A stretch of 35,833 nt of DNA from a virus (Duplodnaviria; Heunggongvirae; Uroviricota; Caudoviricetes). The position numbers were made by a program, and so were the translations under genes. The notes beneath the pieces were generated by a model. That model did no database searches and had not been told where the DNA came from. It was given only the letters and a program-made list of their open reading frames with translations. This document shows positions 1 through 35,794 of this stretch, piece by piece. Position 1 is the stretch's first letter. The number at the start of each line of letters is the position of its first letter. The stretch is from positions 1 to 35,833 of IMG/VR virus record IMGVR_UViG_2565956762_000002; one strand, written 5' to 3'.

Positions 1-1521
1 TTATTCAGGCTTTAATTTATTGATAATAGAATCTACCATTTTAATGCCTGCCTCATTGACTATGACTGAATTGACTACTCTATCAAAATAGTCTTCTATA
101 TGGTGGGAAAATAGGAAAGCAGCACTTGATGGTTTTTTGTTCTTTTCAACTGCAGATTGCAAGACTTCATGAGGCGGAATTTTAAACCTTTTGCATGATG
201 CAATGAGATATTCAAACTCTTCAAATGATAGACAAAAAATATTCTCTGTAGGGATATGATAGTTATGTTTAAACTTGTCATATATCTTATTCATCTCATC
301 TTTAGCATAAGTATTAGCTAGGATACTACCATTGCCTAAGAAAAGGTTTTTATATGTAATGCAAATGATATATGAGTTAGCCCTGAATGGAGCTATTATT
401 CGCTCATTAGAGTATATTTCTCGATTAACTTCGTGAGATTGTTCGATTGCTTTTAATACCGATTTCTTTATTTTTCCTGCAATATCCTCAGGGCGTAATG
501 TTACCATGCCTTTTTGGTGTATCTCAACGCCTTTAGCATCAATGAAAATATTTGCCTCAGTATGTGGAATGAAATAATCAACTACTTTATTATCTTTAGG
601 TAGTCGTTCTTTAAGGTATTTTTCGTTATGAAAATCAATTTCGCTTTCTTTTAGTATTAATTCCAGTGCATTTTCAAATACATTTCCAAAGCTATCCATG
701 AACTTCTCGGCATCAGTTCTTCTTAAAAGATCATATATGAACGTCTGTATGCTTGTTGAAGTCAGTTGTGTGTGTATCTGAAAATACTCTGAACCTTTTT
801 TTATTAATGGTTTTTCAAGAAAAGGTGATGATGAGTAGTATTCAAGCAAAGGTTTATCATAGGTTTTTGATTTGCAAAATGTAGATAGTTCATTGTAATT
901 TATTGATATTGCATCAAGAAATTTCTCAATGGTATTTCTAGGAATGATGTCAAATAATATAGTAAATGTATCTACATTCATTTTTCTCACGGGATGCTCT
1001 TCTGTTATGTGAGTTATTAATATGTAAGATAGCTTAAGAAAGTCTTCGATAGATACATTCGTGATAGTAAAAAAACTTGTCTTTATTTTATGGTTTTTTT
1101 CAAGTTCTGAAAATAGAAAGACTTGTCTGCTAATTGTGTTTAGAGCGTCAATTTTCTGGTAGATTCCTTGTTGGTATAGATTATTTCTAATGAAGAAATG
1201 CATGCCATTCTTCCTCTCAAGACCGATAGGAATAATGTTCAAGGTTTCATAAGTTTTTTGGAAGAGTTTTATTGCTTGATTTTTATCGAGGATTTTGAAT
1301 TTTTTATTCTTGCCAGTTACTGACGCAGACCACTTTAGACATAAATTAACAATCCAAGGCATGTGTCGTAACATGTGGATATTATCTTCAAATTTTTGTA
1401 AGTTATATTGCATACACAATTCGATAAATAAATCAGGGGAATAACCTTGGATTTCTGAACGAATAGCATCCATTCTTAACTTTGCAACCGCATCAGATTG
1501 AATATCTAATTTTTGAATCAC
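1..1521 (-). CDS. Hypothetical 506-aa protein, integrase-adjacent cargo gene
   Basis: Uninterrupted minus-strand ORF ending with TAA at 1-3. GTG start at 1519-1521 lies 13 nt downstream of the int stop and is preceded by GGAGA (revcomp of 1526-1530), suggesting co-transcription with int. Visibly AT-rich versus the phage backbone. No motif I can assign. Confidence 0.6.
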   Translation of the reverse strand: MIQKLDIQSDAVAKLRMDAIRSEIQGYSPDLFIELCMQYNLQKFEDNIHMLRHMPWIVNLCLKWSASVTGKNKKFKILDKNQAIKLFQKTYETLNIIPIGLERKNGMHFFIRNNLYQQGIYQKIDALNTISRQVFLFSELEKNHKIKTSFFTITNVSIEDFLKLSYILITHITEEHPVRKMNVDTFTILFDIIPRNTIEKFLDAISINYNELSTFCKSKTYDKPLLEYYSSSPFLEKPLIKKGSEYFQIHTQLTSTSIQTFIYDLLRRTDAEKFMDSFGNVFENALELILKESEIDFHNEKYLKERLPKDNKVVDYFIPHTEANIFIDAKGVEIHQKGMVTLRPEDIAGKIKKSVLKAIEQSHEVNREIYSNERIIAPFRANSYIICITYKNLFLGNGSILANTYAKDEMNKIYDKFKHNYHIPTENIFCLSFEEFEYLIASCKRFKIPPHEVLQSAVEKNKKPSSAAFLFSHHIEDYFDRVVNSVIVNEAGIKMVDSIINKLKPE

Positions 1522-4905: not shown

Positions 4906-5132
4906 TGGCTGATGCAATGGATCTTGTACAGCAGCGCGTTGAAGAAGAACGCCAGCGCCATATTCGTGCTGCCCGTGCCAAAACGCCGGGCGTGTCCCGC
5001 GTGCTTTGCATTGAGTGTGAAGCGCCAATTCCGCCAGCACGCCGCCGCGCCATTCCAGGTGTGCAGCTTTGCATTACCTGTCAGGAAATCGCAGAGCTGA
5101 AAGGCAAACATTACAACGGAGGTGCTGTATGA
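4905..5132 (+). CDS. TraR/DksA-family C4 zinc-finger protein
   Basis: 75 aa with CxxC-(17)-CxxC (CIECEAPIPPARRRAIPGVQLCITC), typical of phage TraR-like proteins; start overlaps the previous stop. Confidence 0.8.
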   Translation: MADAMDLVQQRVEEERQRHIRAARAKTPGVSRVLCIECEAPIPPARRRAIPGVQLCITCQEIAELKGKHYNGGAV

Positions 5133-5986
5133 GCACCATCCTGAAATGGGCGGGAAATAAAACCGCCATTATGTCCGAACTGAAAAAACACCTTCCTGCT
5201 GGCCCGCGACTGGTTGAACCTTTCGCGGGTTCCTGTGCTGTGATGATGGAGACGGATTACCCCAGCTATCTGGTTGCGGATATTAATCCTGATTTAATCA
5301 ACCTCTATAAAAAGGTTGCCGCTGATTGTGAATCGTTTATATCTCGCGCCAGAGTTTTATTTGAGATCGCAAACAGGGAGGTGGCTTATTACAACATAAG
5401 GCAGGAGTTTAATTACTCCACTGAAATTACTGATTTCATGAAAGCGGTATATTTCCTGTATCTCAATCGTCACGGTTACCGTGGTTTATGTCGCTATAAC
5501 AAGAGCGGGCATTTCAACATTCCCTACGGTAATTATAAAAATCCGTATTTCCCTGAAAAAGAAATTCGCGCATTTGCAGAAAAAACCCAGCGGGCAACGT
5601 TTATTTGCGCCAGCTTTGATGAAACGCTGGCGATGTTGAAGGCGGGGGATGTGGTGTATTGCGATCCGCCGTATGACGGCACGTTTTCCGGTTATCACAC
5701 TGACGGCTTCACTGAAGATGACCAGTATCACCTGGCATCCGTTCTTGAACATCGGTCATCAGAAGGACATCCGGTCATTGTTTCTAACAGTGACACATCC
5801 CTGATCCGTTCGCTGTATCGCAATTTTACTCACCACTACATCAAGGCAAAACGCAACATCGGTGTGGCAGCTGGAGAGGGTAAATCAGCAACAGAAATCA
5901 TTGCTGTTTCCGGGCCGCGCTGCTGGGTGGGATTTGATTATTCGCGTGGCGTGGACAGTTCTGCCGTGTACGGAGTACGTGCATGA
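5129..5986 (+). CDS. dam: DNA adenine methyltransferase (Dam-like, N6-A MTase)
   Basis: N-terminal SAM motif region LKWAGNK, FAGSCAV and catalytic DPPY ([10 protein letters not shown]). Start chosen at ATG 5129 ([11 protein letters not shown]) rather than the upstream in-frame 5069. Confidence 0.9.
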
Positions 5987-9292: not shown

Positions 9293-10372
9293 GTGGCGTT
9301 ATCAGATGCGTTAATTACAGTAAATCAAGCCGAACGGGGCGGTGAAAACGCGTTGAGAGGCTTTTCATATCAAGCCTCTTGGGGGATAAATTATTTACTT
9401 GAGAAACAAAAAGAAAAGGAGAAATATTTATTTCTATTTGAATATCATGACGATATTCTTGTATTGAATTCATCTGTTTCTCCGACTAGTGCTGAGTTTA
9501 TCCAAGTTAAAACAAAAAAAGATGGTAAATGGACACTCGCAGCAATAGTGAACGCAACAAAAGCTAAACCTAAATCATTTGTTGCAAAACTATATGACCA
9601 TTTCTATCAATTCGTTGGTCACGAAATTTATATGGTTCTGTTATCGAATGCTGGATTCGATTTCTTAAATGATAATAACGAAAAAGGTAGTGATCTTAAT
9701 AATGAGCATAAGGAAATTATAATTAGTAAGGTTCAAGAGCAGCTAAATACTAAAAAAGAAGTTCCTCTTGATAAAATAAAATTTAAAACATCTGATCTTA
9801 GTTTGTTAGATCCTAACTCACATTTATACGGGAAAGTTGCAGTTTTTTTGAATTCTTACTTTGGGGATGATCATGGTATTAATTCAACAGCATTCACTAA
9901 ATTATTAATCAATAAATGTAATGAGAAGGTTAGTGTTGCTTCTAGTGATATCAAAACTTTTGAAGATTTAGTACTAAAGAAAGGTATATCTTCAGAATTT
10001 GTAACTGATTTATTATCTGGACTCATTGCAAGCATAAAAATAACGCCAAAATGGGAACAGGTTTGTATGTTGCTTGGTACTTTCTCAGATCCTTATGAGG
10101 GGATTAAATTACAATCAGTTTTTACACGCATATCAATAAAAGTGCTCAATGTCAATTCAATATACTATCTTTATTTTCTGGAATTTCAATCGGCTCTAAA
10201 GATTATAGAGCATTATCGTGAGATACCTGTTCGAGACCTCTTCTTTACACTCGAAAAAACAATTGCAGCGGGGGGCGGGGATTTCTCTTTATTAAATCAA
10301 GAAGAGAAATTTATGATTGCTATATATGCAATTATAAAGTTGACTTTTGAGGATGTTTCTTATGAAGAATAA
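9293..10372 (+). CDS. Candidate defense effector: predicted PD-(D/E)xK-like (Cap4/DUF4297-like) nuclease
   Basis: 359-aa ORF with GTG start at 9293 in an AT-rich island. N-terminal motifs RGFSYQASW ... EYHDDILVL ... EFIQVKTKK resemble a restriction-endonuclease-like D...(E/Q)xK core. Confidence 0.7.
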   Translation: MALSDALITVNQAERGGENALRGFSYQASWGINYLLEKQKEKEKYLFLFEYHDDILVLNSSVSPTSAEFIQVKTKKDGKWTLAAIVNATKAKPKSFVAKLYDHFYQFVGHEIYMVLLSNAGFDFLNDNNEKGSDLNNEHKEIIISKVQEQLNTKKEVPLDKIKFKTSDLSLLDPNSHLYGKVAVFLNSYFGDDHGINSTAFTKLLINKCNEKVSVASSDIKTFEDLVLKKGISSEFVTDLLSGLIASIKITPKWEQVCMLLGTFSDPYEGIKLQSVFTRISIKVLNVNSIYYLYFLEFQSALKIIEHYREIPVRDLFFTLEKTIAAGGGDFSLLNQEEKFMIAIYAIIKLTFEDVSYEE

Positions 10373-12020
10373 CGTTAAATTTAAAAATATAAAAATACTC
10401 TCATTAAGAGACAGAAAAGCTTTTTCTTATGAGTTTTCAGAAGGGGTTAACTTCATATATGGTACAAATGATGTTGGTAAATCAAGCCTGATTAAAAGTC
10501 TTTATTACACATTAGGTGGAGATTTAAGGCTTGATGATGCTTGGAAATCAGATGATATAGTTACACTGGTGGAAATTAATAACGGGGAAAATGATTTTAT
10601 TTTTTTACGTTATAAAAAGATTATTGGTGTCTTTGATTTGAAGAATGATGATCTAGTCGTGTATAACACGATTTCGTCATTAGCATCTCGTGTTTCAAAT
10701 ATATTTGGTTTTAAACTGGAATTACATAATAAATATACGGGTGCTACGACTCAGGCAAACCCTGCTTGTTTGTTTGCCCCATTCTTTATTGATCAGGATG
10801 AAGGATGGAAAGCGGTGATAAATTCTTTCGAAAACATGAGTATGTACTCAGAATGGCAAAAAAACATTCTTTACTATCACTCTGGAATTAAGCCAAAGGA
10901 ATATTATACAGTTCAAGGGAAAATCAAAGAAATTAAAGTTAAAATTTCAGAGTTAGATGGTTTTGTTAAGGTTCTAAAAAGAAGCAAAAGTAAGATTGAT
11001 GAATCTTTTGGCGTGGTTTTATTTGATGTTGATTTGGATTTTTATAAATCAAAGTTGGAACGTATATTAAATGAATATTCTAATTTGAATTTAGTTCAGA
11101 CAGAATATAGATTGAATCTTTTGAGGTTATATTCTAGGAAGAATTTCCTTGAGAGTGAACTCAAAGAGATAACTGCGATTATTGATAATGAATTTGAGAT
11201 TTCGAATTTTCGAGATGATAATGTTGCTTATTCAGTAAATGAATATAATTATATAAACCATAGAGATGAAATGCTCAAAAACATTGCTGTTCTTGCAGAT
11301 GAGAAAAGCAAGATTGAGGAAAATATTCCTAAATTGAATCAAAAGCTAGAAGAGTCAAGGGCTGCTTCAGAGGCGTTGCAGGCGCTGATTTTAGAAACTC
11401 AATCGGAAATAACGCTTCATGATGTTATTAAATCTGCTGCATACCATGAAATTGAATCTACTTTTATTTCACAGTTAGATGAGTTATTCGTTGAGATTGG
11501 TCGAAAAGAAGGCGAGTTGACAGAGTTACAAGAAGAATTAGAAGTATACAATGATAAGAAAAGAACTGTTAAAATAAATGACTGTTTCAAAGAGTATTTC
11601 GCTAAAGCTCTTAAAGAGCTTGGTGTCGAAAATACAAAGGTAGGTGGCCTTAGTAGTTATAATAATATTACTAAGGGCAAGACTGGTAGTCGAGGTCCTC
11701 GAGGTATATTTGCATTTCACTACGCGCTGCTTAGTGTTATGAAAAGCAACGCTTCAGTTGAGAATATGCCTATAGTAATAGACTCTCCAAAGCAACAAGA
11801 TTTGGATCCAGAGCATACGCATAAGCTTATAAAACTATGCTTGGATGGGTTTTCCCTTACAAATCAGATTATTATTGGAACTGTTGGTTATGAGAGTTTC
11901 ATGGATGGTTTTAATAGCATCAAACTTGAAAATAAATATCATCTTTTAAATGATGAACATTATGATAATGTTTATTCTCAATTAATGCCATTGTTTGAAC
12001 GGGTGATACTTTCAAGATGA
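10362..12020 (+). CDS. Candidate defense partner: SMC/Rad50-like ABC ATPase with long coiled-coil
   Basis: ATG at 10362 overlaps the upstream stop (ATGAAGAATAA); GAGGA lies upstream. N-terminal P-loop GTNDVGKSS, about 250 aa of heptad-rich coiled-coil, and a C-terminal head with MPIVIDSPKQQDLDPEHTH. Confidence 0.75.
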   Translation: MKNNVKFKNIKILSLRDRKAFSYEFSEGVNFIYGTNDVGKSSLIKSLYYTLGGDLRLDDAWKSDDIVTLVEINNGENDFIFLRYKKIIGVFDLKNDDLVVYNTISSLASRVSNIFGFKLELHNKYTGATTQANPACLFAPFFIDQDEGWKAVINSFENMSMYSEWQKNILYYHSGIKPKEYYTVQGKIKEIKVKISELDGFVKVLKRSKSKIDESFGVVLFDVDLDFYKSKLERILNEYSNLNLVQTEYRLNLLRLYSRKNFLESELKEITAIIDNEFEISNFRDDNVAYSVNEYNYINHRDEMLKNIAVLADEKSKIEENIPKLNQKLEESRAASEALQALILETQSEITLHDVIKSAAYHEIESTFISQLDELFVEIGRKEGELTELQEELEVYNDKKRTVKINDCFKEYFAKALKELGVENTKVGGLSSYNNITKGKTGSRGPRGIFAFHYALLSVMKSNASVENMPIVIDSPKQQDLDPEHTHKLIKLCLDGFSLTNQIIIGTVGYESFMDGFNSIKLENKYHLLNDEHYDNVYSQLMPLFERVILSR

Positions 12021-22703: not shown

Positions 22704-23301
22704 TCTGCTGCCACCGGGTTCAACTTCACTGGAGCGCCGACTGGCGCAAACCTGTAGCGGGATTTCTGATCTGCAGGTGCCGCTGCGTGACTTGTGGAAT
22801 CCGGCTACCTGTCCGGTCAGCTTCCTGCCTTATCTCGCCTGGGCGTTCTCTGTGGATCGCTGGGACGAGGGCTGGACAGAAAGCGTCAAACGCCATGTAG
22901 TGAAGGATGCTTTTTATATTCATCAGCATAAAGGAACTACCAGTGCCGTGCGGCGGGTGGTGGAACCGTTCGGATTCCTGATCCGCATTATTGAGTGGTG
23001 GCAGACCGGAGAAACACCGGGCACGTTTCGCCTGGATATCGGCGTGCAGGACCAGGGCATCACTGAAGATACCTATCTGGAACTTGAGCGGCTGATAAGC
23101 GATGCCAAACCATGTAGCCGTCACATGATCGGCATGTCCATCAATCTGCAGACTAGCGGTCCGCATTGGGTGGGGGCCGCCAGCTATCTTGGCGAAGAAA
23201 TCACGATCTATCCGTATATCAACGAAACAATTATTTCTGGCGGCACCGCGCATGAAGGCGGGGCGGTCCATGTTATTGACACAATGAGAGTGAATCCATG
23301 A
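22696..23301 (+). CDS. I: Baseplate/tail formation protein I
   Basis: 201 aa, overlapping neighbours. Confidence 0.8.
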   Translation: MNSLLPPGSTSLERRLAQTCSGISDLQVPLRDLWNPATCPVSFLPYLAWAFSVDRWDEGWTESVKRHVVKDAFYIHQHKGTTSAVRRVVEPFGFLIRIIEWWQTGETPGTFRLDIGVQDQGITEDTYLELERLISDAKPCSRHMIGMSINLQTSGPHWVGAASYLGEEITIYPYINETIISGGTAHEGGAVHVIDTMRVNP

Positions 23302-24704
23302 GCACAAAATTTTATACCCTGCTGACGGATATTGGCGCGGCGAAACTTGCCAGCGCCGCCGCGCTCGGTGTGCCGCTAAAAATTACCCATATGGCGGTCG
23401 GCGATGGCGGCGGAGTATTGCCAACGCCAGACTCAAAGCAGACTGCACTGGTAAATGAGAAACGCCGGGCTGCGCTGAATATGCTCTATATCGACCCGCA
23501 GAACAGCAGTCAGATTATTGCCGAACAGGTGATCCCTGAAAACGAGGGCGGTTGGTGGATACGTGAAGTGGGCTTGTTTGATGAGTCCGGGGCATTGATT
23601 GCCGTGGGCAACTGCCCGGAAAGCTATAAGCCGCAACTGGCTGAAGGTAGCGGGCGCACTCAGACCGTGCGCATGGTGCTGATTACCAGCAGCACGGACA
23701 ATATCACCCTGAAAATCGACCCTGCTGTAGTGCTGGCAACCCGCAAGTATGTGGATGACAAGGCACTGGAGCTGAAGGTGTACGCGGATGATCAGATGGC
23801 AAAACATCTTGCCGCACCGGACCCGCATTCACAGTATGCACCCAAAGAAAGTCCGACGTTTACCGGGACACCCAAAGCGCCAACGCCAGCAGCAGGGAAT
23901 AACACCACGCAGATTGCGACCACCGAGTTTGTTCAGGCGGCTCTGACGGCTCTTATTAATGGTGCGCCAGCCACGCTGGACACGCTGAAAGAAATAGCCG
24001 CAGCCATTAACAATGATCCGAAATTCAGTACCACCATTAACAATGCGCTGGCACTGAAAGCGCCGCTGTCGAGTCCGACACTCACCGGAACGCCAACCGC
24101 ACCTACTGCGGCACAGTCGGTCAACAATACACAAATTGCCACCACGGCATTTGTGAAATCGGCGATTGCGGCAATGGTGGGGTCTGCACCTGCGGCACTG
24201 GATACACTGAACGAACTGGCGGCGGCGCTGGGGAATGACCCGAACTTTGCCACGACAATGCTTAATGCACTGGCAGGTAAACAACCGCTGGACAATACGC
24301 TGACTAATTTGAGTGGAAAGGATGTAACTGGTCTTCTCACATACCTTGGTTTAGGAGAAGCGGCGAAAAGGGATGTGGGCACAGGAGATAATCAGATACC
24401 GGATATGGGAGCATTCGCTTCTGGTTCGGGATGGTTCAGGCTACCAGGTGGATATATTGTTCAGTTTGGCACTTTTTCAGGAAACACGACCCGCTTTATC
24501 AGTGGACACTTCCCTATACCATTCCCTAATCAGCCGATGGTTTCAGTCAGTGTTATGTCTGATGCCGTTCAGTCAGACCCGTCGAATCCTGCCCCGCAGG
24601 TTTTGTCTGTAAATTTTGAACATATCAGTAATTCAGCGTGGCGTGTGGCAACCAGTGATATCTCACAGCAATACAGATTCAGTTATATTTCGATAGGACG
24701 GTAG
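23298..24704 (+). CDS. H: Tail fibre protein H (currently expressed C-terminal variant)
   Basis: 468 aa; N-terminus matches P2 H as recalled (MSxKF ... MAVGDGGG ... ESYKPxLAEGSGR). The C-terminal about 120 aa lies inside the invertible segment. Confidence 0.88.
   Translation: MSTKFYTLLTDIGAAKLASAAALGVPLKITHMAVGDGGGVLPTPDSKQTALVNEKRRAALNMLYIDPQNSSQIIAEQVIPENEGGWWIREVGLFDESGALIAVGNCPESYKPQLAEGSGRTQTVRMVLITSSTDNITLKIDPAVVLATRKYVDDKALELKVYADDQMAKHLAAPDPHSQYAPKESPTFTGTPKAPTPAAGNNTTQIATTEFVQAALTALINGAPATLDTLKEIAAAINNDPKFSTTINNALALKAPLSSPTLTGTPTAPTAAQSVNNTQIATTAFVKSAIAAMVGSAPAALDTLNELAAALGNDPNFATTMLNALAGKQPLDNTLTNLSGKDVTGLLTYLGLGEAAKRDVGTGDNQIPDMGAFASGSGWFRLPGGYIVQFGTFSGNTTRFISGHFPIPFPNQPMVSVSVMSDAVQSDPSNPAPQVLSVNFEHISNSAWRVATSDISQQYRFSYISIGR
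24334..24359. other. Invertase crossover site (left), Hin/Gin/Cin-type
   Basis: TTCTCACATACCTTGGTTTAGGAGAA; it is the inverted repeat of the site at 26210-26235 and resembles hix/gix sites. Confidence 0.6.
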
Positions 24705-24706
24705 AA

Positions 24707-25147
24707 ATGCAGAAATATATTTTCAGTGCCGATAAAAATGCGTTTTTCCCTGTGGAGCTTAAAATCGCTTATCAGGAATCCGGCGAATGGCCCGATGATG
24801 GAATCGAAATTGACGACACTGTTGCCGCCGAATTTATGAAGGAAGCACCAGAAGGAAAATACAGATGTGTCATCGACGGAATGCCTGCATGGATTGATAT
24901 TCCACCGCCGACTCATGAGGAACAAATTGCCGCAGCCGAACTGGAAAAGCAGCAATTGATTAATCAGGTCAACGAATACATAAACAGTAAGCAATGGCCT
25001 GGTAAAGCAGCGATTGGTCGCCTGAAAGGTGAGGAACTGGCGCAATATAATTTGTGGCTGGATTATCTGGACGCACTGGAACTGGTTGATTCCTCCAGTG
25101 CTCCAGATATTGAATGGCCTACGCCTCCGGCAGTTCAGGCCAGATGA
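24707..25147 (+). CDS. G: Tail fibre assembly chaperone (G, expressed orientation)
   Basis: 146 aa directly after H; Tfa-like C-terminus. Confidence 0.8.
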   Translation: MQKYIFSADKNAFFPVELKIAYQESGEWPDDGIEIDDTVAAEFMKEAPEGKYRCVIDGMPAWIDIPPPTHEEQIAAAELEKQQLINQVNEYINSKQWPGKAAIGRLKGEELAQYNLWLDYLDALELVDSSSAPDIEWPTPPAVQAR

Positions 25148-25721
25148 CATCCGGTGCGGTGCTGGTATCTGTTGCCGTCACCGCGTCAATGTAATCCAGC
25201 ACGGCGTTAAGTCGGGTTGTTTCTGCCTGCGTCAGCTTCCGCCCGGCCCGTAATTTCAGTTGAATCAGACTGATGGAAGCCATTGCTGCATCAATCAGTG
25301 ACTGGCGCTGTGCTTCTGCCGCTTCTACTGCGGCGCTATGCTGTGCCTCAGTATCCGTCACCCATTTCTCACCATCCCATTTATCATATGGCGTTAACGG
25401 GGCGATAGTGGTTGTATTTTCAGGGTAATCACCCGGAGCTGTGATTTCTTTCGATTCTCCTGTTTCGGTGCTATAGATGATTTCACCGCGATGGTCTGGT
25501 ACATATTCCCATGAGTTACAATCTGCAGAACGGCAGATTGCATAACCAGCTTTATGTGTAACTGGTGCATCTAAACAAGAACATGCCGGGATACCGACGC
25601 CAACGGCAAGATATTCTGTTGATGATGAAATGTATTCCCGTGTCGTGTTGTCATAGTTATAGACGGTAATATCACCCGCTACTGTGGCAATAAATTCACT
25701 GTTTAATTTTGCCTGTGTCAT
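25119..25721 (-). CDS. Alternative tail fibre assembly chaperone (silent orientation)
   Basis: 200 aa on the minus strand, converging on G with a 29-bp overlap; Tfa-like C-terminus (LDYIDAVTATDTSTAPDVIWPELP). Confidence 0.75.
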   Translation of the reverse strand: MTQAKLNSEFIATVAGDITVYNYDNTTREYISSSTEYLAVGVGIPACSCLDAPVTHKAGYAICRSADCNSWEYVPDHRGEIIYSTETGESKEITAPGDYPENTTTIAPLTPYDKWDGEKWVTDTEAQHSAAVEAAEAQRQSLIDAAMASISLIQLKLRAGRKLTQAETTRLNAVLDYIDAVTATDTSTAPDVIWPELPEA

Positions 25722-26235
25722 TATGCAGCCCTCACGATGTAGTTAAATGCAATGTTGCGCGGGCGGGTTTCAGTGCTAATATTCGCTGCATTGTCAGAAG
25801 CAACCCCACGAGTGCTGATAGCTCTTACTGCTGAAGGTAGGCTTTGAGGCTCCCGGTCAGTATAGGCAATCCCCCCATCCCCTCCAGTTACTAGCGGACC
25901 ATAATTCCCGGTCTGACCAATAGTTGACGATGTTGTATTTGAACCTGTCCAGAACTCTTGGTTATGTGAGTGGTCTCTGAGTGAATGGCCTTGAGATGAA
26001 AGCAGCGCACGCCCGTTGTCGATACCACGACTATCATCCCATCCACGGATAAACTCACCGCGTAAATCAGGTAATTTATTTGTTGGATAAGCCTTTGCCA
26101 GTTCCGGGTATTCTTCAGCAGAAAATGCCGCACCGTTGCATTTCAGCCAGCCTGTTGGCGGTGTGGCTGAAGGCCATGGAACAGGCACACCAACAGGTAA
26201 TGCAGAGCCTTCTCCCAAACCAACGTTTATGAAAA
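25721..26235 (-). CDS. Alternative tail-fibre C-terminal segment (promoterless, P2 H-type ending)
   Basis: Minus-strand ORF ending NIAFNYIVRAA, as in P2 H; begins at the right crossover site (LGEG ... PVPWPS) and would fuse to the H constant region after inversion. Confidence 0.65.
26210..26235. other. Invertase crossover site (right)
   Basis: TTCTCCCAAACCAACGTTTATGAAAA; about 20 of 26 positions match the reverse complement of 24334-24359. Confidence 0.6.
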
Positions 26236-26290
26236 TGCAGAGATAATGGCTAACTGGCATCATCCACGGTTTTTATTCAGGGGATTGATC

Positions 26291-26857
26291 ATGCTTATTG
26301 GCTATGTACGCGTGTCAACAAATGACCAGAACACCGATTTGCAACGTAATGCACTGAACTGCGCGGGATGTGAGCGGATTTTTGAGGATAAAATCAGTGG
26401 CACTAAGTCCGACAGACCGGGGCTTAAAAAACTGCTCAGGACACTATCGGCAGGAGACACTCTGGTTGTCTGGAAGCTGGACAGGTTGGGGCGCAGTATG
26501 CGGCATCTTGTTACACTGATAGAAGAGTTGCGTCAGCGTGGCGTGAATTTCCGAAGCCTGACTGACAGTATTGATACCAGCACCCCAATGGGCCGTTTCT
26601 TTTTTCATGTCATGGGGGTCCTGGCTGAAATGGAACGCGAACTGATAGTTGAACGTACCATGGCAGGGCTGGCTGCAGCTCGTGCCAAAGGCAGAGTAGG
26701 TGGACGCCGTCCTAAGTTGACCACCGAACAGTGGGCACAGATTGGGCGTTTACTCGAGGCCGGAGAATCAAGACAGCGTATTGCACTGATTTTTGATGTA
26801 GGCGTTTCTACCATTTATAGAAAATTTCCGGCAAATAAGAGCAATGAATCCCCCTGA
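26291..26857 (+). CDS. Serine DNA invertase (Hin/Gin/Cin/Pin family)
   Basis: MLIGYVRVSTNDQNTDLQ with catalytic Ser and a C-terminal HTH; start at ATG 26291. Confidence 0.9.
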   Translation: MLIGYVRVSTNDQNTDLQRNALNCAGCERIFEDKISGTKSDRPGLKKLLRTLSAGDTLVVWKLDRLGRSMRHLVTLIEELRQRGVNFRSLTDSIDTSTPMGRFFFHVMGVLAEMERELIVERTMAGLAAARAKGRVGGRRPKLTTEQWAQIGRLLEAGESRQRIALIFDVGVSTIYRKFPANKSNESP

Positions 26858-26905: not shown

Positions 26906-26923
26906 TGTGTGAATAACGACACA
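26906..26923. promoter_or_regulatory. Late-promoter activator (Ogr) site, TGT-N12-ACA
   Basis: TGTGTGAATAACGACACA, about 80 bp upstream of FI. Confidence 0.5.
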
Positions 26924-26999: not shown

Positions 27000-28172
27000 A
27001 TGGCTCAGGATTACCACCACGGGGTGCGCGTTGTTGAAGTCAACGAAGGCACCCGATCCATTACCACGGTGAGCACCGCCATCGTGGGCATGGTCTGCAC
27101 GGGCGATGATGCCGATGCAAAAATGTTTCCTCTTAATAAACCCGTGCTGATCACTGATGTGCTTACCGCCAGTGGTAAAGCGGGTGAGTCCGGCACACTG
27201 GCCCGTTCGCTGGATGCCATCGCTGACCAGGCAAAACCCGTGACCATTGTTGTGCGTGTGCCGCAGGGTGAAACGGAAGAAGAAACCACGACCAATATCA
27301 TCGGCGCAGTGACTGCTGAAGGTAAAAAAACAGGCATGAAAGCCCTGTTATCTGCCCAGTCACAGCTCGGCGTTAAACCGCGCATTCTCGGCGTGCCAGG
27401 CCACGACACCAAGGCGGTAGCGACTGAGTTGCTGAGCGTGGCGCAAAGCCTGCGTGGGTTTGCTTACCTGTCAGCGTATGGCTGCAAGACGGTACAGGAG
27501 GCGATCACTTACCGTGAAAACTTCAGCCAGCGCGAAGGGATGCTGATCTGGCCCGACTTTACTGGCTGGGACACGGTGCTGAATGCCGAAGCAACGGCTT
27601 ATGCCACCGCCCGTGCGCTTGGTCTGCGCGCTAAAATTGACGAGCAGACCGGATGGCACAAAAGCCTGTCCAACGTGGGCGTTAACGGTGTCACCGGAAT
27701 TTCTGCTGATGTGTTCTGGGATCTGCAGGACACGGCAACAGATGCGGGACTGCTGAACCAGAACGACGTCACCACCCTTATCCGCAAAGACGGTTTCCGC
27801 TTCTGGGGTTCCCGCTGCCTGAGTGATGACCCGTTCTTTGCCTTCGAAAACTACACCCGCACGGCGCAGGTACTTATGGACACAATGGCAGAAGCGCATA
27901 TGTGGGCGGTGGACAAACCGCTGAACCCGTCGTTGGCCCGCGACATTATCGAAGGTATCCGCGCCAAAATGCGCAGCCTGGTCAGTCAGGGCTATCTCAT
28001 TGGTGGTGATTGCTGGCTGGATGAGTCGGTGAACGACAAAGATACTCTGAAAGCCGGGAAGCTCACCATCGACTACGACTACACGCCAGTGCCGCCACTT
28101 GAAAACCTGATGCTGCGTCAGCGCATCACCGATCAGTACCTGGTGAATTTCTCCAGCCAGGTCAGCGCGTAA
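27000..28172 (+). CDS. FI: Tail sheath protein FI
   Basis: 390 aa with RBS AGGAGG upstream; conserved position. Confidence 0.92.
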
Positions 28173-34407: not shown

Positions 34408-34581
34408 ATGGATACAAACGAACTTGGCTTAGTTAAGGCGCGTGTTGAACTGATCACCGCTATGCTCAAATGCGCAACCGCGTTTGTTGGCTTAGTTGGT
34501 GCGGTTTACGCCGTTCTTAACATGGCCTTCAACTACAACAATTTAACTCATGACAATAGAAGTTCAAAGGTGGGAAGATAA
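34408..34581 (+). CDS. Small single-TM protein (57 aa), possible RT-associated effector
   Basis: ATG at 34408 preceded by GGAGG at 8 nt; hydrophobic segment ATAFVGLVGAVYAVLNMAF; the 3' end overlaps the RT start. Confidence 0.4.
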   Translation: MDTNELGLVKARVELITAMLKCATAFVGLVGAVYAVLNMAFNYNNLTHDNRSSKVGR

Positions 34582-35323
34582 ATTTGAGATTAAGCCCGGG
34601 GTTTGGGTTTATGTCCCAAGCGTTGAGGCACGTAAAGTCGGAGGGAAGATACTTCAGGCTGTCAGAAACAAGTGGATTCCGCCACTCTATTTTTACCATC
34701 TAAGAACTGGTGGGCATCTTAAAGCTGCCAGATTACACTTAAAAAGTGATTTTTTTGCCGTTGTTGATATTAAACATTTTTTTCAGTCAACGAGCCGTAG
34801 TCGTATCACCCGTGATCTAAAGAGCTACTTCACCTATTCTCAAGCGCGGGAAATCTCAACATTTTCAACTGTAAGAAACTTGTCCCATAGTCCACATAAG
34901 CATGTCCTCCCTTTTGGTTTTGTTCAATCTCCAATACTTGCAACCCTCTGCTTAGATAAAAGTTATTTTGGTAGCTTACTACGCCGATTGAACAAACATC
35001 ATGATCTCAAGCTAAGTGTGTTTATGGATGATGTGATCATCTCGTCAAACGATTTGGCCCAATTACAAGCGGCTTACGACGAAGCACTAGTGGCAATGCG
35101 TAAATCTGGTTATCAAGCCAACATGAGTAAAACTCAGGCACCATCGTCAAAGATTAGCGTGTTTAATTTAACTTTGAGTAAGGGAGTTATGAAAGTCACA
35201 TCTCAGAAAATGAGTGACTTCCTGATTGATTTCTATTCAAGCAATTATGAGCCGCACAGAATAGGGGTCAAAAACTACGTCGAAGCTGTTAATCCAGGGC
35301 AAGCGAAACTCTTTAAGTTGTAA
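34550..35323 (+). CDS. Compact reverse transcriptase (257 aa)
   Basis: RT motifs in order: RKVGGKIL, VVDIKHFFQS, PFGFVQSPILATLCL, FMDDVIISS (YxDD-like), then SKT and KVTS. Confidence 0.75.
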   Translation: MTIEVQRWEDKFEIKPGVWVYVPSVEARKVGGKILQAVRNKWIPPLYFYHLRTGGHLKAARLHLKSDFFAVVDIKHFFQSTSRSRITRDLKSYFTYSQAREISTFSTVRNLSHSPHKHVLPFGFVQSPILATLCLDKSYFGSLLRRLNKHHDLKLSVFMDDVIISSNDLAQLQAAYDEALVAMRKSGYQANMSKTQAPSSKISVFNLTLSKGVMKVTSQKMSDFLIDFYSSNYEPHRIGVKNYVEAVNPGQAKLFKL

Positions 35324-35431: not shown

Positions 35432-35794
35432 TGGTGGAGCTGGCGGGAGTTGAACCCGCGTCCGAAATTCCTACATCCTCGGTACTACATGCTTAGTCAG
35501 TCTTTACATTCGCTTGCCAGCTGCGGACGGACACGCCACTAACAAACTAGCCTGATTAAGTTTTAACGCTTCAACCCCAGGCAGGGCTTCCACGCGATCT
35601 CTTTTGGGTTTGACCTCTCTTGATCCCCGTCCTAAGAGCGGAGGCTAGGGAGAGAGGGCTCTAAGCAGGTTATTAAGCTGCTAAAGCGTAGTTTTCGTCG
35701 TTTGCGACTATTTTTTGCGGCTTTTTACGAGGCCAACCGCCCCTCGGCATGCACCTTGGGTTTCGCAAATCCCGTCGAATCCAGAATCAGCCCC
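35432..35794 (-). ncRNA. ssrA: tmRNA (SsrA), 363 nt
   Basis: Minus strand reads GGGGCTGATTCTGGATTCGACGGG ... GGACGCGGGTTCAACTCCCGCCAGCTCCACCA, the enterobacterial ssrA 5' and 3' ends as recalled; length 363 nt. Confidence 0.95.

Follow-up and report, generated by a model that had tools for sequence, protein, structure and literature searches.

The stretch analyzed here, IMG/VR virus record IMGVR_UViG_2565956762_000002 (positions 1 to 35,833; called the window in what follows, always meaning its full 35,833 nt), carries a P2-like prophage, and our subject is its tail-fibre gene H together with the DNA between H and the tail sheath gene FI. Two inverted crossover sites bracket two tail-fibre tips, each with a chaperone gene, and a gene for a serine DNA invertase follows. 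The region is made up of the features below, given with the expectation values (E) of their database matches.

23298-24704, plus strand: tail-fibre gene H, full-length at 468 residues as oriented here, with its C-terminal part within the segment
23298-24346, plus strand: constant part of H, its first 349 codons, as far as the crossover point (Pfam Phage_tail_fib N-terminal domain, E 8e-65)
24334-24359, plus strand: left crossover site, TTCTCACATACC-TT-GGTTTAGGAGAA, within H and encoding ..LTYLGLGE..
24346-26223: invertible segment, 1,878 bp from one central dinucleotide to the other
24347-24704, plus strand: expressed variable C-terminus of H, its last 119 codons, a Gp53-like_C tip (PF21882, E 7e-8; PHROG tail-fibre families)
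24707-25147, plus strand: chaperone paired with the expressed tip, 146 residues (Pfam Caudo_TAP, E 3e-34; phrog_188, E 8e-63)
25119-25721, minus strand: alternative chaperone, 200 residues, silent here (Pfam Caudo_TAP, E 1e-32; phrog_105, E 1e-97)
25721-26222, minus strand: alternative C-terminus of H, silent and promoterless, with a Collar domain (Pfam Collar, E 1e-15) and ending NIAFNYIVRAA
26210-26235, minus strand: right crossover site, the reverse complement of which is TTTTCATAAACG-TT-GGTTTGGGAGAA, 55 bp upstream of the invertase start
26291-26857, plus strand: serine DNA invertase of the Gin/Cin/Hin family, 188 residues (Resolvase PF00239, E 1e-52; C-terminal HTH_7 PF02796, E 1.5e-15)
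26309-26380, plus strand: predicted Fis-dependent recombinational enhancer, inside the invertase gene, aligned without gaps to nt 19-90 of P1 cin
26312-26326, plus strand: predicted Fis I site, GTGTCAACAAATGAC
26361-26375, plus strand: predicted Fis II site, GCGCGGGATGTGAGC
27000-28172, plus strand: tail sheath gene FI (Pfam Phage_sheath_1 and sheath_1C), the right neighbour, which bounds the Z/fun slot

Compared directly in inverted orientation, the two crossover sites are identical at 21 of 26 positions and have the central TT in common, and the inverted 26-bp sites that the first-pass annotation had placed here are correct in their coordinates. Each site is an imperfect dyad of 12-bp half-sites, with half-site matches of 9/12 and 8/12. 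Against the invertase-site consensus TTCTCNNAAACCNNGGTTTNNGAGAA, the left site scores 19/20 and the right site 18/20; apart from these two, no position in the whole 35.8-kb window reaches 14/20, and shuffled sequence yields 0.25 sites per window at 15/20 or better. The pair is far beyond chance. More than two crossover sites, as in shufflon-like systems of the multiple-inversion type, were sought in the window and only two were found; since the left and right sites form the sole pair, this is a two-state system, not a shufflon. The pair escaped a repeat search seeded at 9 nt, as its exact runs are shorter than the seed, the longest contiguous identity between the two repeats being 7-8 bases.

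What lies between the sites is as first described: the C-terminal exon of H and a G-type chaperone gene on the plus strand, and an alternative chaperone and an alternative H C-terminus on the minus strand. This is the layout of the Mu G and P1 C segments, with the constant N-terminus outside and two opposed cassettes of tip plus chaperone inside, and the likeness to the Mu G segment suggested by the first-pass annotation was well chosen. The constant part of H is 53% identical to P2 H over residues 1-332 (332 residues), and P2 H is homologous to this part only. The two tips have unrelated folds, Gp53-like_C on one side and Collar/gp37-like on the other. For the expressed tip, no solved structural relative was found by sequence. 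The silent tip has its best solved relative in the short tail fibre of PDB 9CUY (E 2e-18) and aligns to the T4 gp37 tip structure 2XGF (E 3e-16), which ends ...NIAFNYIVRLA. The NIAFNYIVRAA ending had been read correctly but likened to that of P2 H, and this likeness did not hold: P2 H ends ...INGTWYNVAQV (its C-terminus is ...KYINGTWYNVAQV, as in Mu S and S'), the motif is T4 gp37-like, and BLASTP of the silent exon against P2 H returned no similarity.

In both cassettes the start of the chaperone gene is coupled to the stop of its own tip. The start codon of the 146-residue chaperone lies 2 nt past the H stop codon, and the ATG of the 200-residue chaperone overlaps the stop codon of the silent tip (TAATG). 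The two chaperone genes are convergent and overlap by 29 nt, and the likeness between their products is limited to the C-terminal 80 residues, at 34% identity. Gene callers give the silent exon as an open reading frame (ORF) of 180 residues beginning at ATG 26263, outside the segment; this free-standing "phage tail protein" is an annotation artefact.

The invertase directly after the segment, also named by the first-pass annotation, is an intact ORF with both the Resolvase and the HTH_7 domain. Over its full length it can be aligned to the crystal structures of Mu Gin, 3UJ3 and 4M6F (E 4e-93, Ser9 aligned); it is 74% identical to Mu Gin and 76% to P1 Cin and, by the alignment to Gin, has its true start at ATG 26291. 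The catalytic-domain residues Ser9, Arg7 and Tyr5 are in place. Work from the Johnson laboratory found Hin K47/R48/K51 and Q151/R154/L155 to be specific to Fis/enhancer-activated invertases (PMC3798978). The equivalents in the window invertase are present as K46/K47/R50 and Q150/R153/L154. The protein also carries wild-type H106 and M114, at the positions where Fis-independent mutants arise.

The P1 record NC_005856 annotates the enhancer at nt 19-90 of cin, and across this stretch the window gene is gap-free against both cin and gin, with 56 of 72 positions identical to cin. Because the same region also encodes the catalytic N-terminus, synonymous sites were tested. Among 68 close relatives the test had no power (variable codons, 15/18 vs 64/68). 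In a sample of 50 distinct and more diverse invertase genes from Enterobacterales, on the other hand, codons 8-12, which are exactly the Fis I site, had a degeneracy-normalized codon entropy of 0.24 vs 0.83 in the rest of the gene (p = 2e-4). The six-fold degenerate Ser9 codon is TCA in all 50 genes, and the spacer codons 13-23 showed no synonymous constraint. A Fis enhancer probably lies within the invertase gene, one half of it verified by this codon usage.

The surroundings are those of P2. The cluster order V-W-J-I-H-G-(cargo)-FI-FII is found, with Pfam matches to Tail_P2_I, Phage_tail_fib, sheath, tube, GpU, GPD and Ogr_Delta, and near-identical records are classified as Peduoviridae. The window reads H-G-[second chaperone, second tip]-invertase-FI where P2 reads H-G-fun(Z)-FI; segment and invertase occupy the G-FI slot of P2, the Z/fun position proposed from the first reading. 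About 80 nt upstream of FI, a TGT-N12-ACA box at 26906-26923, read by eye, has the form of the activator site of P2 Ogr/Delta late promoters, so that the invertase gene would lie past the V-H-G late operon and ahead of the F-operon promoter.

Both orientations of the segment in nature

Inverting the segment in silico at the central dinucleotides keeps the frame of H and yields a 516-residue fusion with the collar tip. This predicted form exists. The window is 99.98% identical over 35.4 kb to Klebsiella phage Kp4845-2 (OK490395.1), except that 24346-26235 is reversed, and the in-silico inverted window matches the same record with 0 mismatches in 9,890 nt, the predicted hybrid sites included. 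The comparison with Kp4845-2 puts the exchange point between site positions 12 and 20, around the core. Against CP079692.1, the inverted window has 1 mismatch in 9,551 nt. In public assemblies, the exact 468-residue H was found on 14 contigs (29 index blocks) and the exact predicted 516-residue H on 238 contigs (405 index blocks), finished chromosomes among them. A scan of species-representative genomes with the exact left-junction pattern gave no match.

The two orientations are not confined to one lineage. A second lineage, defined by the same 30 single-nucleotide polymorphisms (SNPs), was found in both (our loci L010 and L094), and both also occur at the same ssrA site in Klebsiella-type chromosomes with flanks that are 99.9% identical (L182 and L175). 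Since two SNP lineages are each seen in both orientations, the segment must have flipped repeatedly in nature. Recent and repeated inversion at these sites is thus established by sequence comparison. In place of a single orientation with an inactive invertase or a mutated catalytic serine, which the first-pass annotation had named as the outcome that would speak against a switch, we find both orientations and an intact Ser9.

A two-state switch and the alternatives to it

We consider it very likely that the locus is a two-state Gin/Cin-type site-specific inversion switch of the tail fibre, carried by a P2-like (Peduoviridae) prophage beside ssrA. The late operon would transcribe H from a fixed promoter upstream of the segment, while the last ~115-165 codons of H and the chaperone gene downstream would ride on the 1.88-kb segment between the inverted 26-bp sites, so that the cassette facing H would be expressed and the other would be silent. 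The adjacent invertase would bind both sites as dimers and be activated by host Fis bound to the enhancer in the 5′ end of its own gene; it would then cut at the central TT, turn one pair of subunits by 180 degrees and religate, leaving the segment inverted. In the orientation of the window, the phage would make H with the Gp53-like tip (468 residues) and then the 146-residue chaperone; in the other, H with the T4-gp37-like collar tip (516 residues) and then the 200-residue chaperone. A population of lysogens would release two kinds of virion with different receptor-binding tips, a form of host-range bet-hedging. Fis dependence and the rate of inversion are expected here by analogy with the Mu, P1 and Hin paradigms, and homology to Mu, P1 and T4 suggests that the two tips would recognize different receptors and that host range would change with them.

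Some observations weigh against this interpretation. Taken over its full 72 nt, the enhancer region shows no significant constraint (p = 0.10), and with just 2 usable codons at Fis II in the synonymous test, the enhancer evidence is solid for Fis I only. A promoter and terminator scan around the switch found no sigma-70 promoter for the invertase above chance (3 hits vs 4 expected). The orientations are also shared very unequally, at ~7% vs 93% of index blocks, a skew that could reflect slow or biased inversion.

The skew would also fit a fossil switch, that is, an inherited architecture that no longer inverts, in which the orientations seen in databases are ancient events fixed in separate lineages. 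Decayed relatives exist as well: p13P477T-2 has a frameshifted invertase, another locus (L179) has an IS1 remnant and two more (L181 and L183) have an IS66-family element in H. The window, however, has an intact invertase ORF with intact catalytic residues, and two intact sites. Oppositely oriented copies are 0-1 nt apart over 9.5-9.9 kb, and each of the two SNP lineages holds both states. Intact parts, near-identical opposite copies and two lineages together require recent and repeated inversion, and we regard a fossil as very improbable.

An alternative of about the same low standing accepts the inversion and places its main effect elsewhere than in host range, either in trans action on invertible loci of the host or in the retargeting of a domesticated, tailocin-like particle. 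It is established that Hin, Gin, Cin, Pin and Fin cross-react, as Kutsukake reportedly found in 2006, and Fels-2 Fin acts on the Salmonella hin locus. With up to 5 invertase-region matches per E. coli genome, trans action is plausible. Yet it would add to a host-range role and not replace it. The prophage, moreover, looks complete (int, CI, gpA, capsid, lysis and tail genes), near-identical copies have been classed as intact prophages (PMC8617712), and tail-fibre tip and chaperone are the sole DNA between the sites. It is hardly likely, then, that the switch serves mainly some other end.

Least credible of all is that general (RecA) recombination between the inverted repeats, or assembly errors, produced the opposite orientations without the invertase: short-read assemblers may mis-orient segments between inverted repeats, and among 80 IMG/VR contigs there are 6 with an end no more than 50 nt from a crossover site, but at most 7-8 contiguous identical bases fall far below what either RecA or assembler collapse would require, the point of exchange lies at site positions 12-20 around the central dinucleotide, and the alternative orientation stands in the finished chromosomes CP079692.1 and CP083796.1. 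Assembly breaks at the sites might also betray mixed populations; none of the small NCBI contigs L184-L188 breaks off there, and with the 6/80 IMG/VR contigs just mentioned we do not rely on this sign.

Judged from its sequence and that of its relatives, the locus is a genuine and undamaged tail-fibre switch of the Gin/Cin type, shown to invert, and it belongs to a kind that is both known and abundant. Textbooks have covered invertible tail-fibre segments ever since Mu G and P1 C, and the case adds little to biology. Its use is practical. Near-identical records that differ at this locus, such as the unannotated "UNVERIFIED" Kp48xx-2 entries in GenBank, are the same phage in the other switch state. 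A phage with two receptor-binding tips also makes host-range prediction from one assembly incomplete, which matters for the engineering or typing of P2-like phages of Klebsiella and E. coli.

Hosts, relatives and other prophage content

The prophage ends 2-3 nt from the 3′ end of ssrA, which lies at the right of the window.

35432-35794, minus strand: ssrA, the transfer-messenger RNA (tmRNA) gene, with tag ANDENYALAA; the sole Rfam match in the window

The ssrA flank of the window is 100% E. coli-type, while in chromosomes with the opposite orientation ssrA is Klebsiella-type, 96% identical. A near-identical prophage at both types of ssrA means that the same phage lysogenizes two genera at the same site. 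Five E. coli-type copies were typed, namely the window, L180 and three complete genomes (99.6% identity), and every one of them has the Gp53-like orientation; no collar-type junction was found at ≥99% in complete E. coli genomes. Klebsiella-type hosts hold both states with the collar dominant (405 vs 29 index blocks overall), in numbers that are small and uncorrected for clonality. A strict rule tying host genus to orientation was rejected, as Klebsiella-type flanks occur with both. It is conceivable, if rather doubtful, that the two tips partition host genera, with one P2-like phage shuttling between Escherichia and Klebsiella. In Mu lysogens, the orientation of the prophage records the tip of the infecting particle. 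If the partition were true and the same held here, the bias in orientation would reveal which tip serves which genus.

Relatives of the switch are widespread. Close relatives of the invertase are encoded on at least 596 IMG/VR contigs, and at IMG/VR loci with enough flank a site starts 81 nt before the invertase ATG in nearly all, with the second site 1.1-2 kb upstream in H. Among these relatives, the same chaperone modules occur in either orientation and in many cassette pairs, the Gp53-like plus gp37-like collar pair of the window being one of many combinations. Matches to the invertase region were found in 2,165 of 5,426 complete E. coli genomes, and a protein-guided genome scan extended the family across Enterobacterales. 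Escherichia phage Cartapus has a "Mu phage Gin invertase homolog" annotated between the tail-fibre genes and FI. Three IMG/VR loci (L033, L040 and L066) have 3-4 crossover-type sites, and in L040 the invertase is present twice, the second copy lying on the opposite strand; these loci may be multi-inversion variants or assembly chimeras.

Several related loci have departed from the intact form. The frameshifted invertase of p13P477T-2 (L002 4961-5519, CP019275.1) lies in a circular, 37-kb, phage-plasmid-like record. In a Klebsiella-type prophage (L179 855-3215), a 573-residue H and the IS1 remnant replace the cassettes and the invertase is kept. Two further Klebsiella-type loci (L181 12035-14370 and L183; GCA_054399675.1 and GCA_054407885.1) have the IS66-family element in H just upstream of the Gp53-like tip, and a contig of this kind has been reported in 12 samples. 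The insertion presumably leaves the prophage variant locked and without a fibre.

Outside the tail-fibre region, the prophage carries further cargo, of which the following genes were assigned.

9293-10372: LmuA, with a Cap4 nuclease domain (PADLOC, 1.7e-142)
10347-12020: LmuB (PADLOC, 2.3e-253)
34550-35323: reverse-transcriptase ORF (RVT_1, E 4e-21; best PADLOC model RT_VI, E 1e-17)

LmuA and LmuB form a Lamassu anti-phage system (9293-12020), which occupies the old/tin hotspot of P2, with gpA on one side and the portal gene on the other. The reverse-transcriptase ORF sits between ogr/gpD and the attachment end, the third P2 hotspot, and looks like retron-type cargo by its domain matches; next to it, no msr/msd RNA matched Rfam at the gathering threshold. 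In relatives, a 57-residue ORF is called just upstream of the reverse transcriptase (e.g., L175 11672-11845). Directly upstream of gpA, and overlapping it, is a gene for a Dam-type N6-adenine methyltransferase (5069-5986; MethyltransfD12, E 2e-76; PADLOC "orphan MTase"). At the left end, a 506-residue ORF (1-1521, minus strand) adjoins the integrase and has no Pfam or PADLOC match; it lies inside the prophage as bounded by OK490395.1, which runs 132 nt further left.

Comparison with known systems

The closest model is the G segment of Mu with Gin. Both keep the constant N-terminus of the fibre out of the segment and have two convergent cassettes of tip plus chaperone within it; in both, the invertase gene stands immediately to the right of the segment and is transcribed away from it, and 26-bp sites (Mu gix is TTATCCAAAACCTCGGTTTACAGGAA) encode an ..LGL.. 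hinge motif. The segment is 3 kb in Mu and 1.9 kb here, however, and neither tip found here is related to Mu S or S'. Mu has two identical sites, whereas those of the window differ at 5 of 26 positions, and Mu is a transposing phage whereas the element described here is a P2-type prophage. To the C segment of P1, the resemblance is in the invertase, 76% identical to Cin, and in a stretch that aligns without gaps to the annotated P1 enhancer; in P1, by contrast, cin flanks the segment on the opposite side and is transcribed toward it, and the C segment is 4.2 kb. The Min system of p15B has six sites, and the window has two only.

The hinge is also of interest in P2 itself. The crossover site encodes it in Mu (IQNLGLQETVN) and in the window (LTYLGLGE), and P2 H, without an invertase, keeps EYLGLQETVN at residues ~375-385. 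The P2 motif may be a relic of an ancestral invertible junction or a preferred splice point for the exchange of tips.

Salmonella Hin shares the recombinase family, 26-bp hix-like sites and conserved Fis-contact residues, and its enhancer lies in the recombinase gene, as does the one predicted here. It flips a promoter and lies inside its own segment, whereas here a coding exon and a chaperone gene are exchanged and the invertase stands outside. The silent tip, in turn, has T4 gp37 for its nearest model: it shares the terminal NIAFNYIVR(L/A)A and has as its partner a Caudo_TAP chaperone from the family of lambda Tfa and P2 G, but it is much shorter (~165 residues), has a single HxH motif and is grafted on a P2-type shaft.

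Within the P2-like phages, the switch has direct counterparts. The loci of enteropathogenic E. coli (EPEC) and Fin of Salmonella Fels-2 belong to the same phage family and are the same kind of switch as that of the window. Sequencing of cultures of EPEC strain E2348/69 showed two P2-like prophages to be present in more than one orientation side by side (Goldberg et al. 2014, PMC4272514), one locus being two-state and the other having three inverted repeats and four variants (PMC4272514); it is from this three-repeat locus that the simple two-state locus of the window differs. A DNA invertase is described as "often" present in the P2 Z/fun hotspot, with adjacent genes inverted (bioRxiv 10.1101/2024.10.15.618418). 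The architecture in P2-like prophages, in the same Z/fun slot, is already described and very common. The paper that released the Kp48xx prophages makes no mention of an invertase or of inversion (PMC8617712). The switch of this particular phage is thus undescribed, but what is new here is a gap in annotation, not a type of system.

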